64,000 nucleotides of DNA, from positions 46,742 to 110,741 of the forward strand of contig CAZKTA010000004.1 in assembly GCA_964555645.1 (NCBI GenBank), read 5' to 3'. A program made the position numbers and the translations under genes. The notes beneath the pieces were generated by a model. The model ran no database searches. It was not told the DNA's origin and worked only from the letters and a program-made list of their open reading frames with translations. Positions 2,085 through 7,593 of the stretch are shown piece by piece; within the stretch, counting starts at the first letter, position 1; the number at the start of each line of letters is the position of its first letter. Origin of the DNA: an uncultured Verrucomicrobiota bacterium. Lineage in GTDB: Bacteria > Verrucomicrobiota > Verrucomicrobiia > Limisphaerales > DTLC01.

Positions 2085-2510
2085 ATGTTCACGAAAATAC
2101 TAGTTGGTTACGACGGTTCAAAAGGCGGGCAGGCAGCCTTGCGCCGCGCTGCAATGCTTGCCAAACAATACAATGCACAAATTACCGCGCTTTGGGTGCG
2201 TCCGCCACTGCCACGGCACGCGGATTTGCCGGGTGAACCCGAAGCCGAGGCCGAAGCTGCTGAGGAATTCTTCCAGCAACGGCAAAGGGAAGTGGCTGAA
2301 GTATCCATGCAACACGGCATAACCATCCAATGCGAAACACGACGCGGTCACCCGGCCAAGACAATTGTCAACTTCGCCAAAGAAGGCGGGTACGACCTGA
2401 TCGTGGTCGGCCACAGCGACCATTCGGAGTTGTGGGGCAGGTTGCTTGGCGACACCGCCGACCGTATCAGCGACCATGCCCACTGCAGTGTGCTGATTGT
2501 AAAAAGTTGA
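2085..2510 (+). CDS. Universal stress protein (UspA family)
   Basis: MFTKILVGYDGS...GHPAKTIV...DLIVVGHS...LLGDTADRISDHAHCSVLIVK is the USP fold signature. Confidence 0.95.
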   Translation: MFTKILVGYDGSKGGQAALRRAAMLAKQYNAQITALWVRPPLPRHADLPGEPEAEAEAAEEFFQQRQREVAEVSMQHGITIQCETRRGHPAKTIVNFAKEGGYDLIVVGHSDHSELWGRLLGDTADRISDHAHCSVLIVKS

Positions 2511-2821
2511 TCCGGCGGCAACTAGAGAAAACGTTTGGTTTTTTGCCTCCAGCAGCACTGCGCTAAACTACCCAATTAGCAAACTAAGTTTTTCCAGCTC
2601 TCGCCCCTGTAACTTGCCTTGCAAAAGGTATCTAAACAGCCATGTGTATCCGCTAGTGAAGTTGCATGCCGGTAGGGTCATAACACACCAGTGTCCCGAT
2701 GAAACGAGTGTATTTGCTCGCCGTGAAAGTTGCGTAATGTGCGCGTGTGGCTTCACTGCTAGTTGCAGAACCGGTTACGGCTGGTTAACGGCTGAGGCAC
2801 CCAGCCAAGTTCTGTTACTAG

Positions 2822-2920
2822 CAGGTTGTTGAAAAATTGGTGTTCTCGAAGAACGACCCTCACATATCTTGGCAACTTTGCAAAGTTTTTGTGGCCGTGA
2901 ATGACTTTTTCACCAGCCTG
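2822..2920. mobile_element. MITE-like miniature inverted-repeat element (99 bp)
   Basis: Terminal inverted repeats caggttgttgaaaaa (2822-2836) and tttttcaccagcctg (2906-2920), 13/15 match, flanked by CTAG and TTAA. No coding capacity. Confidence 0.55.
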
Positions 2921-3084
2921 TTAAGGCCGAGAACTGTCAAGTTGAACCCAATGGTCCAGCTCTGCTACAGCACTGATTCGTTTTGCTTTCCCAATCTGCT
3001 GATTGAAAGGTCAGGCGCAGCAAACTTGACACGAACATGGTGTGCCAGTACAAAACTATCGCAAAGGATAAAACTCAGCGAGCA

Positions 3085-4683
3085 ATGAACAAGACAGGCT
3101 TTCCCGGCAGTGTGCGAGCAGCACTCGTTTGCGTTGCAGCTACGGTTTCGGCCATTGGACTTGCACAGCAACAAGGCCATTTCAGCTACACTGTGGTTGA
3201 TGAACAAGCCATCATAACCGGATTCGATAAATCATACATAGGTGAAGTTAACATCCCCACAACACTTGGTGGTTACCCGGTGGTTGGTATTGGCGAGTCA
3301 GCTTTTGCATATTGCTCTGGGCTCAGTAAGGTCACAATCCCAAACGGTGTGATATGGATCGGCCCCGCTGGATTCTATTGCTGCAACACACTGACTAACG
3401 TTGTCCTGCCGGATAGCCTCACATCAATTGGGCAAGAAGCATTTGCGTATTGTGGTCTGCGGCATCTAACGATACCAAATGGCGTAACGAACATCGGGCC
3501 TCGTGCATTTTGGGCCTGCGGCAACCTTGTTGATGTTGCCTTTGGCAGTGGACTGAGCGCAATTGGTGACGCTGCGTTTGCCTTCTGCTCTGGTTTGCGG
3601 GAGGTTGTTATTCCTGACAACGTGATTGAGGTCGGTGCGTCGGCATTTTTGTGTTGCACCAGTTTAACCAATGCAACTGTAGGCAAAGGTGTTGCATCAC
3701 TCGGCAAAGGTGCTTTCTACGGTTGTTCGAGTTTGCTAGCAATTAACGTTGACCCGGCGAACTCCGCCTACAGCAGTCTCGACGGTGTCCTGTTCAACAA
3801 AGCAAAAACTTTGCTCATTCGATACCCAACCGCGCGCGCTGGGACTTATGCTGTTCCAGTAGGTGTGATTGAAATCGGGCCGGGTGCTTTTTTGAGCTGT
3901 GCAAACTTGACCGGTATCAGTTTCCCAAGTGGCCTATTGAACATTGGCGATAGCGCTTTCAGCGAATGCAACGCGCTGACTGATGTAACAATCCCACATA
4001 CCGTCACCGCATTAGGCGAATCGGCTTTTGAATATTGCTTTGGTCTGACTAATGTCACCATTGGAAACGGCCTTACCAATATCGGGCCGCGCGCGTTCAT
4101 TTCGTGCATTGAATTACGATCCGTCACGCTCGGCGCTAATGTGAGAACAATCGGTTGGTCAGCATTTAACGGTTGCACCAAACTCGGTCATATCGTGCTT
4201 GGCCACAGCCTCACAACTCTGGGGGATTACGCATTTTTATGGTGTACAAACCTAGTCCGGATTGTTTTGCCTAGAACACTGACCAGCGTCGGCACCAATG
4301 CATTCGCAGGATGCTCAAGCTTGGAACGTGTGTATTTCACTGGCAATGCCCCAACGCTTGTTGGCGACGATGTCTTCATGTTTTCGGACAATGTTACAGT
4401 GTATTACTTGCCCAACACGTTAGGTTGGGGGCCGACCTTTGCCGACCGGCCAGCACGATTGTGGAATCCAGTTTTTACCAGGATTAACCTCACCAATGGC
4501 CAGTTGCGTTTGACAGTGACAGGTACAGCAGGCATACCGATCGCACTTGAACTGGGCACGAATATCGTCGTGGGGCATTGGGAACACCGGCTCACCACAA
4601 ACCTTGTTGGCGGCCAGATTGACCTGGCCACGGCAGTTTTCCCAAATGCACAAGCTGGTTTTTGCCGGCTCGTCGGCCCATAA
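3085..4683 (+). CDS. Secreted BspA-type leucine-rich repeat (LRR_5) protein with a C-terminal beta domain
   Basis: Signal peptide (VRAALVCVAATVSAIGLA), about 14 repeats of consensus IPxxVTxIGxxAFxxCxxL, then VYFTGNAP...VYYLPNTLGW and a C-terminal domain ending GFCRLVGP. Start ATG 3085 preferred to 3037. Confidence 0.9.
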   Translation: MNKTGFPGSVRAALVCVAATVSAIGLAQQQGHFSYTVVDEQAIITGFDKSYIGEVNIPTTLGGYPVVGIGESAFAYCSGLSKVTIPNGVIWIGPAGFYCCNTLTNVVLPDSLTSIGQEAFAYCGLRHLTIPNGVTNIGPRAFWACGNLVDVAFGSGLSAIGDAAFAFCSGLREVVIPDNVIEVGASAFLCCTSLTNATVGKGVASLGKGAFYGCSSLLAINVDPANSAYSSLDGVLFNKAKTLLIRYPTARAGTYAVPVGVIEIGPGAFLSCANLTGISFPSGLLNIGDSAFSECNALTDVTIPHTVTALGESAFEYCFGLTNVTIGNGLTNIGPRAFISCIELRSVTLGANVRTIGWSAFNGCTKLGHIVLGHSLTTLGDYAFLWCTNLVRIVLPRTLTSVGTNAFAGCSSLERVYFTGNAPTLVGDDVFMFSDNVTVYYLPNTLGWGPTFADRPARLWNPVFTRINLTNGQLRLTVTGTAGIPIALELGTNIVVGHWEHRLTTNLVGGQIDLATAVFPNAQAGFCRLVGP

Positions 4684-4771
4684 AGTTTGATATAAACGCC
4701 TCGTAACCACACGCTCTCGGAACTAATTGCACTGCCACAACCGTTTGTGCGCGCGGCGCATTTTCGGCGCT

Positions 4772-5159
4772 GCGTTGCGTGCCCAGCCCGTTGAGAAAAC
4801 TTTCATCCTGCCGCCGCAGCTCGATGTCCTCCAGCCGCTGGCCGCCGCTCAAGATGTTGTAAGCGATGTTGAGCACATGATCGCTCTTGTGATAGGGCAG
4901 ATGCACCTTGAGCAACTACAGCTGCTGATCAAATCTCTTCGACAAGACCCAGGCCTTGCACAACCGTGTGCATCGCTCCCAGACCGCCGTAGTTGGTGGC
5001 GGCGACCTTGCCGCTCAGTTCGTAATGAATGTTGCGGGCGCTTATCATCGGCTGGGGTTGGTCCGGCCAATGGCGCACCGCCAAACGGCGTTGGATTCGG
5101 CGCTTGCGGTTGCGCAGGATTTTTGGGTAGGTTCGGCTCACTCGAAATGTCGTTTTCAT
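4772..5159 (-). pseudogene. IS1380-family transposase remnant (frameshift, nonsense codon, truncated)
   Basis: RNRKRRIQRRL...PMISARNIHYE...GGLGAMH, then after a +1 frameshift near 4931 DQQL*LLKVHLPYHKSDHVLNIAYNILSGGQRLEDIELRRQDESFLNGLGTQR. Similarity stops before the expected IPDPTT motif. Confidence 0.8.
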
Positions 5160-5346
5160 GGGTTGTGATCTGTTCTTTACAAAGCCATTTCAACCCATGA
5201 TTACCGGCATTTCGAGCTTTTTCATTCTGTTCGCAGAACTAAATCACGCTTGTTGAAGGACTAGTGCTTTGCACTTGCGATTTTTTGCAAGCACGTAAAT
5301 GTGTGCGTGACTCCAGCACCACAGAGACGTAAAGTGTAGCTCGGTT

Positions 5347-7593
5347 ATGCGCTCTGACACAATCAAAAAAGGTATCGAACGCGCCCCGCACCGCGCGTTG
5401 CTCCGTGCAACCGGCGCAATCGAGTCGGAGGCTGATTTCGATAAACCGTTTGTTGCAATTTGCTGTTCGCACACGGATTGCATCCCCGGACACGTCCACT
5501 TGGATGAAGTTGCAAAACTGCTGAAGAAATTTGTCCGGCAGTTCGGCGGCGTGCCATTTGTATTTCATACAATTGGTATTGACGACGGCATCGCAATGGG
5601 CCACTCGGGCATGAAATACTCGCTGCCATCGCGCGAGTTAATTGCCGATTGCGTCGAAAGCATGGTTAAAGCCCACTGTTTCGACGGCATGATTTGCGTG
5701 CCGAACTGCGACAAGATCATCCCCGGCATGCTCATGGCGGCCATGCGCGTGAACATACCGACCGTGTTTGTCAGTGGCGGGCCGATGGCAGCCGGTGTGT
5801 TGCAACGCGCACCCAAGCCGGGTGTGCCCGAGCCGCTTAGACCGGCAGGGGCGGCTTCGGACCTGATCTCGGTTTTTCAGGGTATAGGCAAGTTGCAAGC
5901 GGGCTCGATTAGCCCTGATGAACTTGCTAGGCTCGAACAGACATCTTGCCCGACCTGCGGATCGTGTTCCGGCATGTTCACGGCGAACTCGATGAACTGT
6001 CTGTGCGAGGCGCTTGGCATGGCATTGCCCGGCAATGGCACAATCTTGGCCACGTCAATTGAACGTGAGGCACTGTATGAATGGGCCGCGCGCCAGATAA
6101 TGCAATTGATCAACTTGGACCTCAAACCGCGTGACATCGCAACGCGCGATGCGTTCGACAATGCATTCACGCTGGACATGGCAATGGGCGGCTCGACAAA
6201 CACGATCCTGCACGGTTTGGCTATTGCAAGAGAAGCTGGCATCGAATACGACATTGGTAGGATCGACGCGTTATCCCGGCGCGTGCCATGTCTGTGCAAG
6301 GTGTCACCGTCTTCGTCGTATCATATACAGGATGTGCATCGTGCTGGTGGGATTCACACTATCCTTGGTGAACTTGCTCGGCTCGGTGTGATCAACACCG
6401 AATGCAAAACTGTTACAGGCAAGACAATCGGCCAAAACATAGCCGAGTGGGATGTGCGGGCCGGTACATGCACCGCATGGGCAAAAGTAGCCCAGGTGTC
6501 TGGGGCGTGTGTCCCACTTTCGCGTGACGGGGAAAACCTGAAAATGGCACTTAAACCTGTGTGGCTTGCCCCCGGCGACGAACGCGCGCTAACGTTGTGG
6601 CGGTTGGCTTGTGCAATAAACAGGTTGGCTTGGTCGGTTGCACAGGTGCTTTTCACCGATGGCGCAACAATCACACTCGACACCGGCGAAGCGCGCTCGG
6701 GCGCATCAAACCTGACCGACCTGTTGAAACAGATGGTCACAAATGTTTCCGGCTCTGTGCGTGCCGAGCTGCGCATTTTGCGCGGTGCACCTGCAGTGGT
6801 GTTCTGGCAATACAATGCCGAGGGCGGTGCGCCGAGTTTGTTTGCCACGCTTACACAGGTGAAGGTCCGGAACTGGCGGGTCGGGCGCGGCGCGCTCTCG
6901 ATGCGGCCGCGTTTGCCGGCAACAGATGAAACCGCAGGCGTCATCCCGTATGATGCTGCAGATGGTTTTGACCCGTTTGATTGTATTCGGACGTCTCAAA
7001 CGGCTTATTCGCCGGATGGCGGGCTAGCGATCTTATTCGGTCAGCTAGCACCTCAGGGTGCAGTGGTCAAAACAGCAGGCATAAGCGAGCAGTTTAAGGC
7101 GCTGTGCGGGCCGGCGTTTGTGTTTGAGGGACCGTGCGTCATCTTCGAAAGCCAGGAAGATGCGTGTGCGGGTATTCTTGCCGGTAAAGTGAAGCCTGGT
7201 GACGTGGTCGTGATCCGATACGAAGGTCCGCGTGGCGGCCCTGGGATGCAGGAAATGCTCTCGCCTACAAGTTACATCGTCGGCATGGGTTTAGGCGACA
7301 AGGTGGCACTAATCACGGACGGCCGATTCAGCGGCGGCACAGCCGGCGCATGCATCGGGCATGTGTCACCCGAAGCTGCTGAGGGCGGGCCCATTTGCCT
7401 GCTTAAGGATGGTGACAGGGTCCGTATAGATTTTCCCAATCGGCGCATTGACATACTGGTGCCTGCTGAAGAACTGGAGATGCGCCGGGCAAGCTGGCAA
7501 CCGATCAGCCGGCCCGTGTCAAGCTGGCTGGCTCGGTACCGTCGGCTCGTGACAAACGCAAGCCAGGGCGCAATCCTCAAATTACCCGACTGA
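5347..7593 (+). CDS. ilvD: Dihydroxy-acid dehydratase with a large internal insertion
   Basis: [80 protein letters not shown] and GHVSPEAA. 748 aa versus the usual roughly 560-620 aa. Confidence 0.96.

Follow-up and report, generated by a model that had tools for sequence, protein, structure and literature searches.

Evidence for an NTF2/SnoaL_2-fold domain inserted between the catalytic domains of a verrucomicrobial dihydroxy-acid dehydratase

The ilvD gene and its product

The stretch of DNA analysed here (the window, 64,000 nucleotides of contig CAZKTA010000004.1 in assembly GCA_964555645.1, from an uncultured bacterium of the Verrucomicrobiota, order Limisphaerales) carries an ilvD gene for a dihydroxy-acid dehydratase (DHAD) in which the linker between the two catalytic domains is occupied by a long insertion. 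This insertion is almost certainly a complete domain of the NTF2/SnoaL_2 fold, held by two conserved connectors within what is otherwise an E. coli-like enzyme. DHAD is an essential iron-sulfur (Fe-S) enzyme, a target for herbicides and antimicrobials, and a bottleneck in engineered isobutanol pathways, and to our knowledge no characterised DHAD has an accessory domain or is under allosteric control. The features of the gene are collected in Table 1; IlvDs that carry the insertion are referred to below as long forms, and their closest relatives that lack it as short forms.

Table 1. Features of the long-form ilvD gene, with positions in the window
Feature	Position	Strand	Residues and motifs	Basis
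ilvD coding sequence, long form, dihydroxy-acid dehydratase with inserted domain	5347..7593	+	748 aa	Open reading frame; Pfam; 51% identity to E. coli IlvD
N-terminal catalytic domain	5443..6438	+	33-364; Fe-S and Mg motifs D79/D80, C121-D122-K123, C201/C204/C207	PF00920, E 1.3e-131
12-aa mini-insertion in the N-domain, long-form-specific	5809..5844	+	155-166	Present in 86 long forms, not in the 15 closest short forms
Connector 1	6448..6576	+	368-410; WD.RS..C motif, helix 377-385, β-hairpin 389-400, P-rich hydrophobic lead-in, C375	Conservation and predicted secondary structure
NTF2/SnoaL_2-fold domain (predicted)	6577..6906	+	411-520; α1 412-425, α2 429-434, β 436-451, α3 453-465, β3 470-478, β4 481-489, β5 497-508, β6 511-518	AlphaFold2, Foldseek, SnoaL_2 matches of relatives
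Connector 2	6907..6981	+	521-545; GLMPYD..F.F...DCIR motif, runs into the C-domain	Conservation in long forms
C-terminal catalytic domain	6979..7572	+	545-742; E636 and TDGRFS662GG motif	PF24877, E 2e-74
7-aa mini-insertion in the C-domain, long-form-specific	7096..7116	+	584-590, 'KALCGPA', invariant C587	Comparison of long and short forms

Against Pfam, the product scored 438.9 bits for ILVD_EDD_N (cut-off 27) and 249.6 bits for ILV_EDD_C (cut-off 27.7). The motif [18 protein letters not shown] is common to the window IlvD and E. coli K-12 IlvD, the overall identity to the latter is 51%, and alignment places Gly48 where the [2Fe-2S] class has its first cluster cysteine (TPC motif, 6nte). On these grounds, the enzyme is a member of the E. 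coli-like IlvD subfamily, and not of the Bacillus type with which a preliminary description of this DNA, made from the letters alone, had compared it. The presence of a [4Fe-4S] cluster would follow by analogy with the established E. coli enzyme. The likeness to the E. coli type extends to both catalytic domains and to the Fe-S, Mg, and Ser motifs [31 protein letters not shown], whereas the window form differs by about 175 additional residues at the junction of the N- and C-domains, two mini-insertions, and six extra conserved cysteines.

The catalytic apparatus appears to be intact. None of the 105 sequences compared deviates at C121, D122, K123, C207, E636, or S662, nor at T657, D658, or R660 in the region of the TDGRFSGG motif, while D79, D80, C201, and C204 are invariant or nearly so among the long forms, differ in a few short or standard forms, and are all kept in the window. 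The roles of the Fe-S cysteines, the Mg-binding lysine of the CDK motif, the acidic Mg ligands, and the catalytic serine are those we take over from established DHAD structures, and the core of a full-length model matches solved DHADs in structure (6ovt_A, TMt 0.86). The 96%-complete genome from which the window derives contains no other IlvD/Edd homologue and also encodes ilvI, ilvH, ilvC, ilvE, and leuABCD. Because the catalytic motifs are kept, the remaining pathway genes are encoded, and this is the sole homologue of its family in the genome, there is a strong genomic case that the long-form IlvD is the working DHAD of the branched-chain pathway.

Position, length, and anatomy of the insertion

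In the Pfam assignment the N-domain ends at residue 364 and the C-domain starts at residue 545, with no match in the gap between them, and residues 362-551 scanned on their own against Pfam gave no match at E values up to 1. The interval pointed out in the preliminary description (6460-6975, residues 372-543) lies within this gap, and the open reading frame contains every peptide quoted there. The alignment of solved DHADs (6nte, 6ovt, and plant DHADs) to the window protein falls into two blocks (residues 2-367 and 547/554-744), and the junctions of these DHADs measure about 10-18 residues; that of E. coli IlvD is 30 residues long (366→397) versus 164 in the window (370→535). No solved structure of the IlvD/Edd family has a domain at this junction. 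Among 301 genomes of the phylum, the closest relatives without the insertion are verrucomicrobial IlvDs of 555-561 aa that are 55-69% identical over the N-domain, and their linker of about 6 residues ('AKILDP', within …NISEAKILDP-EVIR…) stands opposite window residues 371-545. By this comparison the insertion is about 175 aa long, which bears out the in-frame insertion of about 170 aa originally proposed.

Conservation within the insertion, as seen in an alignment of 86 long forms, is strongly uneven. It peaks in the connectors (368-411 and 531-548), in helix α1, and in the β3-β4 hairpin. W368, D369, R371, C375, G386, K403, P404, and P409 of connector 1 are conserved in at least 95% of the sequences, as are G531, L532, P534, D536, F541, D545, and C546 in and beside connector 2. 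Helix α1 reads A-I-T-L-W418-R419-x-A-A-A-x-N425 with 95-100% conservation, and the same range applies to G469, R472, E474, L475, P482, W487, and Y489 of the hairpin; W418, R419, N425, and E474 are invariant, and R472, W487, and Y489 are found in 97-99% of the long forms. The other elements (α2, α3, β1-β2, and β5-β6) are variable and keep their hydrophobic pattern alone. The lineage of the window has lost an 'N-A-G-D' turn and 9 residues of connector 1. MAFFT aligns the helix of connector 1 with a helix of the 30-aa linker of E. coli IlvD, but a search with a profile of the insertion retrieved no E. coli-type IlvD at significance, and homology between connector 1 and the E. coli linker is thus unproven.

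Fold of the inserted domain

The assignment of the insertion to the SnoaL/NTF2 fold, first suggested by its order of helices and strands, now draws on several lines of evidence. SnoaL_2 was matched in Pfam by 11 of 12 homologous inserts (best E 7.7e-8), with weaker matches of the same 12 to DUF4440, SnoaL_4, SnoaL_3, and NTF2, and several database members of the long-form clade carry precomputed PF12680 or PF13577 matches. A profile built from the 12 inserts matches ketosteroid isomerase (KSI) chains in the PDB at E values of about 6e-4 to 4e-3. The insert of the window itself (residues 366-548) matches no Pfam family at E values up to 10, so that for this copy the SnoaL assignment depends on its relatives and on predicted structure. 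AlphaFold2 applied to the window insert alone, with an alignment of 12 rows, returned a confident model (mean predicted local distance difference test [pLDDT] 83.2, predicted template modelling score [pTM] 0.83) with the element order α-α-β-α-β-β-β-β, that is, an α+β cone in which three helices pack on a curved antiparallel sheet.

When this model was compared with the PDB using Foldseek, 145 matches were obtained at E ≤0.001, and all 50 of the top matches listed have the NTF2 fold. They include 4OT-SnoaL, SigG1, KSI-like proteins, putative polyketide cyclases, limonene epoxide hydrolase, homologues of the OCP C-terminal domain, and one de novo design. The SnoaL_2 extension found on SigG1, an ECF56 sigma factor, gives the best compact superposition (7qh5_A, E 8e-6, root-mean-square deviation [rmsd] 2.6 Å over 120 columns), and the resemblance to a sigma-factor SnoaL extension that had been noticed in the sequence therefore holds at the level of the fold. 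Two putative signature motifs of ECF41 proteins, NPDKL and DGGGK, are absent from the text of PMC3426412 and PMC8999054 and were not used.

The insert has the α+β cone fold of SnoaL_2 (PF12680) and the wider NTF2-like superfamily (KSI, SnoaL, limonene epoxide hydrolase, DUF4440), from which it differs in being embedded within another enzyme rather than free-standing. With the ECF41 and ECF56 sigma factors (SigJ of M. tuberculosis; SigG1 of S. tsukubaensis, 7qh5) it has in common the fusion of a SnoaL_2 domain to an unrelated protein, but the host here is a metabolic Fe-S dehydratase, the domain is internal and joined by two connectors instead of forming a C-terminal extension, and the only host domains found are ILVD_EDD_N and ILV_EDD_C, with no σ2 and σ4 domains upstream of the SnoaL_2 domain. 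The top Foldseek match by E value, the 4OT-SnoaL fusion (9mua), is likewise a SnoaL fold joined covalently to an enzyme that converts small molecules; it is an end-to-end fusion to an unrelated partner enzyme, however, and superposes poorly (rmsd 12.9 Å, TM 0.37).

Catalysis of the KSI type was considered and rejected: the column of KSI Tyr14 (tKSI numbering) corresponds to residue 420, where the most frequent residue reaches a frequency of 0.30, and that of Asp38 falls in the variable region 444-445. An indel within β4 throws the KSI alignment out of register, and the assignment of strand faces to pocket or exterior from that alignment was abandoned.

Distribution, authenticity, and origin

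Of 41 genomes from the order to which the window belongs, 13 contain the in-frame insert at full length. Across wider databases it occurs in 218 species-representative genomes, of which nearly all bear the label Verrucomicrobiota, Verrucomicrobiia, or Limisphaerales, and the proteins that carry it form at least 467 clusters at 90% identity; as the insert aligns throughout the 86 orthologues retrieved and recurs in these clusters, a chance occurrence is excluded. It is also found in independent assemblies from Logan (SRR8369793), ENA, and JGI and in closed genomes, including that of the cultured Opitutus terrae PB90-1 (ACB76756.1 / WP_012376285.1 / UniProt B1ZV89, 754 aa). Since the same in-frame insert is shared by independent assemblies, closed genomes, and the 218 species genomes, an assembly chimera, which had been raised as a possible explanation, can be excluded on comparative grounds and the insert taken as genuine. 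Long-form IlvDs are also recorded in metagenome-assembled genomes labelled Acidoferrum, Limnocylindrales, Bifidobacteriaceae, Methylacidiphilum, and Solibacter (loci L018, L030, L043, L052, L057, L073, and L074). With the exception of Methylacidiphilum, which is verrucomicrobial, these labels probably reflect mis-binned contigs or mislabelled records and not an occurrence outside Verrucomicrobiota.

A maximum-likelihood tree calculated from core columns only, without the insert, unites all 86 long forms in one clade (support 0.85). The short form of genome G044 branches as sister to this clade (joint support 1.0), and the two together lie within the diversity of short forms; this topology indicates a single insertion event in an ancestor within Verrucomicrobiota. 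The lineage of the window is among the earliest branches of the long clade, and no loss of the insert was seen within that clade, either in the insert-free tree or among the 218 species genomes. A profile search of 1.84 billion representative sequences retrieved no close free-standing donor: the strong matches are fragments of IlvD, and the weak ones, none better than an E of about 1e-7, consist of generic SnoaL_2 proteins together with a single sigma-SnoaL_2 protein (P0047).

Two long forms from Opitutaceae nest inside the long clade. The long form of O. terrae PB90-1 (G229, 4523888-4526143) contrasts with a 561-aa short form of the same subfamily in a congener (G148:C5:58412-60082), and both organisms additionally keep a standard IlvD paralogue that is about 40% identical. 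Because the Opitutaceae long forms nest in the long clade while the congener of O. terrae has a short form, the phylogeny implies transfer or differential loss among the IlvDs of this family and points to gene replacement or transfer. A standard paralogue of about 40% identity accompanies the long form in a number of carriers, among them O. terrae, Nibricoccus, and the genomes G017, G025, and G037.

The ratio of nonsynonymous to synonymous substitution rates (dN/dS) was estimated for the window gene and that of a relative, L117, a pair for which dS is about 1.2 in the core and about 1.0 in the insert. The insert as a whole gives 0.12, its NTF2 part 0.17, and the core 0.04, values that are clear signs of purifying selection on the insert, three to four times more relaxed than on the core.

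Co-adaptation of the enzyme core

The long forms also differ from their relatives outside the insert. Relative to the 15 closest short forms, the 86 long forms have, in addition to the two mini-insertions (Table 1), 34 specific substitutions in the core, each conserved in at least 90% of the sequences. Six cysteines (C45, C315, C353, C375, C587, and C597) are conserved specifically in the long forms, and a further one, C546, becomes invariant. C353, C546, and C587 are present in 86 of 86 long forms and C375 in 85; in the short forms C353 is found in 20% and C546 in 40%, while C375 is absent, as is C587, which lies inside the long-form-specific 7-aa insertion. C353, C375, C546, and C587 flank the base of the insert in the sequence. 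Joint loss of these cysteines was looked for as a sign of pairing, and the few sequences without one of the less strictly conserved cysteines revealed no pattern. Taken together, the mini-insertions, the substitutions, and the new conserved cysteines suggest a core that has co-evolved with the insert, and the mini-insertions at 155-166 and 584-590 probably belong to the surface on which the larger insert docks.

Discussion

The literature we searched contains no paper that links IlvD or DHAD to NTF2 or SnoaL or that describes an insertion in the verrucomicrobial enzyme. In the source records found, the long-form proteins are all named plainly as dihydroxy-acid dehydratase, some of them with an automatic SnoaL_2 match. 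As far as this literature goes, the long-form IlvD is thus a previously undescribed variant of a known enzyme: a clade of Verrucomicrobiota, made up of Limisphaerales-type lineages and some Opitutaceae including O. terrae, has retained, at the hinge of the enzyme, a folded NTF2 module together with a co-evolved core.

As to what this module does, the reading we tentatively prefer, while placing it somewhat below an even balance, is that it has a docked structural or regulatory role. The NTF2 domain would be neither catalytic nor a freely tethered sensor but would be held rigidly on the body of the enzyme through the connectors, helix α1, and the β3-β4 hairpin, where it could act as a structural, assembly, or intramolecular regulatory module, bracing the junction between the catalytic domains and probably enlarging a subunit interface or capping part of the way into the oxygen-labile Fe-S active site. 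Rigid docking is suggested by the full-length AlphaFold2 model (pTM 0.85), whose most confident region is the NTF2 part (pLDDT 85-94, with one loop block at 77), by the constraint on the connectors and the elements adjacent to them, and by the co-evolution of the core. The latter two favour a rigidly docked module over a generic ligand sensor, and the distribution of conserved positions argues against a generic conserved pocket. The closest analogy may be the SnoaL_2 extensions that dock on the σ2/σ4 domains of ECF41 and ECF56 sigma factors; the SnoaL-like extensions of ECF41 proteins work by intramolecular contact or docking (PMC8999054, PMC7730460).

Several points weigh against rigid docking. 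A pTM of 0.85 for a modelled monomer does not prove that the orientation of the domain is fixed, and the four conserved polar or aromatic residues on one face of the β-hairpin would fit a binding pocket as well. The Arg-x-acid pair on one NTF2 strand presumably recalls the pocket triad of limonene epoxide hydrolase. The dN/dS signal, in turn, could reflect merely the need of a domain inside an essential enzyme to fold. For the explanation as a whole, comprising the identity of the domain, its single insertion, and its action as a docked module, we consider the evidence to be evenly poised.

The pocket-like features just mentioned are in keeping with the best placed of the alternatives, a ligand sensor such as the preliminary description had suggested, in which the NTF2 cone takes up a metabolite (a 2-keto acid or a branched-chain amino acid, for instance) and signals through the connectors to the junction of the N- and C-domains. 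The folds of this superfamily typically form a hydrophobic ligand cavity, as among the Foldseek matches KSI, limonene epoxide hydrolase, polyketide cyclases, and the OCP C-terminal domain; R472, E474, W487, and Y489, present in 97-100% of the long forms, lie on one face of the β3-β4 hairpin and could line such a pocket; and the domain sits exactly at the hinge of the two catalytic domains. The elements that normally line the cavity, α3 and β5-β6, are nonetheless variable except at hydrophobic positions, and the position in α1 that aligns with the pocket tyrosine of KSI is variable too. Since the genome of the window encodes IlvH, the small subunit of acetohydroxyacid synthase and the usual feedback sensor of the pathway, there is no regulatory gap to be filled, and we know of no characterised DHAD with feedback control, nor of DHAD as a control point. 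Should the domain be a sensor after all, it would resemble the ACT-domain modules of IlvH/IlvN, IlvA, and LeuA in being a small ligand-binding fold on an enzyme of the same pathway, although the fold is a different one, DHAD is not a known control point, and IlvH is already in place. Even for the long-studied SnoaL extensions of ECF41 proteins no ligand is known (PMC8999054). An allosteric sensor is in our estimation unlikely, though it deserves to be taken seriously.

It might also be argued that the domain contributes nothing and is a passenger tolerated in a permissive surface linker, kept merely because its deletion or misfolding would harm an essential enzyme. The site is demonstrably permissive, given the 30-aa elaboration found there in E. 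coli IlvD, the evolutionary rate of the insert is three to four times that of the core, and short-form or standard IlvDs serve equally well in sister lineages. Against this stand the retention of the insert in at least 218 species with no loss seen within the long clade, the conservation of exposed polar residues (R419, R472, and E474) in 97-100% of the long forms, the co-evolved insertions and cysteines of the core, and a dN/dS well below 1, and we regard a functionless passenger as quite improbable.

A scarcely better or worse case can be made for an additional metal or redox site, in which C353, C375, C546, and C587 would bind a structural zinc or a second Fe-S cluster or form disulfides, with the NTF2 domain as the scaffold of a redox-sensitive or stabilising clamp on the oxygen-labile [4Fe-4S] dehydratase. 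What speaks for it is the near-perfect conservation of this quartet in the long forms (99-100%) and the lower frequency or absence of its members in the closest short forms, as well as the similar long-form specificity of C45, C315, and C597. The cysteines do not have canonical CxxC spacing, however, they show no pattern of joint loss, and disulfides are unlikely in the cytoplasm, so that this too appears to be a rather remote prospect. That the NTF2 domain, the connectors, the cysteine quartet, and the mini-insertions form a built-in control module of the DHAD, acting through either a pocket (R472/E474/W487/Y489) or a second metal or redox site, is possible but doubtful, and a second catalytic site that handles the enol product is less likely. 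Finally, an artefact or a removable element, whether an assembly chimera or an intein- or intron-like element missing from the mature enzyme, has practically nothing in its favour, as no supporting evidence was found, the insert recurs in frame in independent assemblies, closed genomes, and 218 species genomes, and the fold is NTF2 and not HINT, with no intein or Hint match in Pfam. An intein was accordingly rejected, in keeping with the absence of intein motifs reported at the outset: the junctions …WDVR|AG… and …PFD|CIR… lack a C-terminal His-Asn, and the insert ends …DPFD before C546.

The module, if it acts by stabilising the cluster, by changing the oligomeric state, or by sensing a metabolite, would represent a new way to tune this class of enzyme, and it would illustrate how, in nature, one domain can be inserted into the linker between two others. 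A demonstrated regulatory or metal-binding role would raise its interest, and with a true control module this would be the first dihydroxy-acid dehydratase under allosteric or redox regulation. Were the domain to be a mere brace, it would still be a clean domain insertion of single origin with a short-form sister for comparison.

Gene neighbourhood and pathway context

No partner gene or operon is conserved beside the long-form ilvD: across 73 loci, no family of neighbours recurs in more than 4. In the window, about 2.8 kb (2500-5346) separate a Usp gene from ilvD and hold a gene for a 548-aa leucine-rich-repeat surface protein (3037-4683) and the remnant of a decayed transposase. In the relative L117/L118 (ENA and JGI contigs; IlvD 90% identical; L117:185-1500), no more than about 890 bp separate ilvD from the Usp gene upstream of it, part of an antiporter-Usp operon, and for this reason the leucine-rich-repeat gene looks like a lineage-specific insertion. 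A Logan contig that is 97% identical (L116) has a DDE_Tnp_1_4 open reading frame upstream of ilvD.

With regard to the pathway in which IlvD operates, tblastn found no homologue of ilvA (threonine deaminase) in the window's genome. Two LeuA-like genes are present, on contigs C4 and C2, at C4:5390-6907 (50% identity to E. coli LeuA) and C2:76464-77981 (29%). The second of these may encode a citramalate synthase, which would imply a threonine-independent route to isoleucine.

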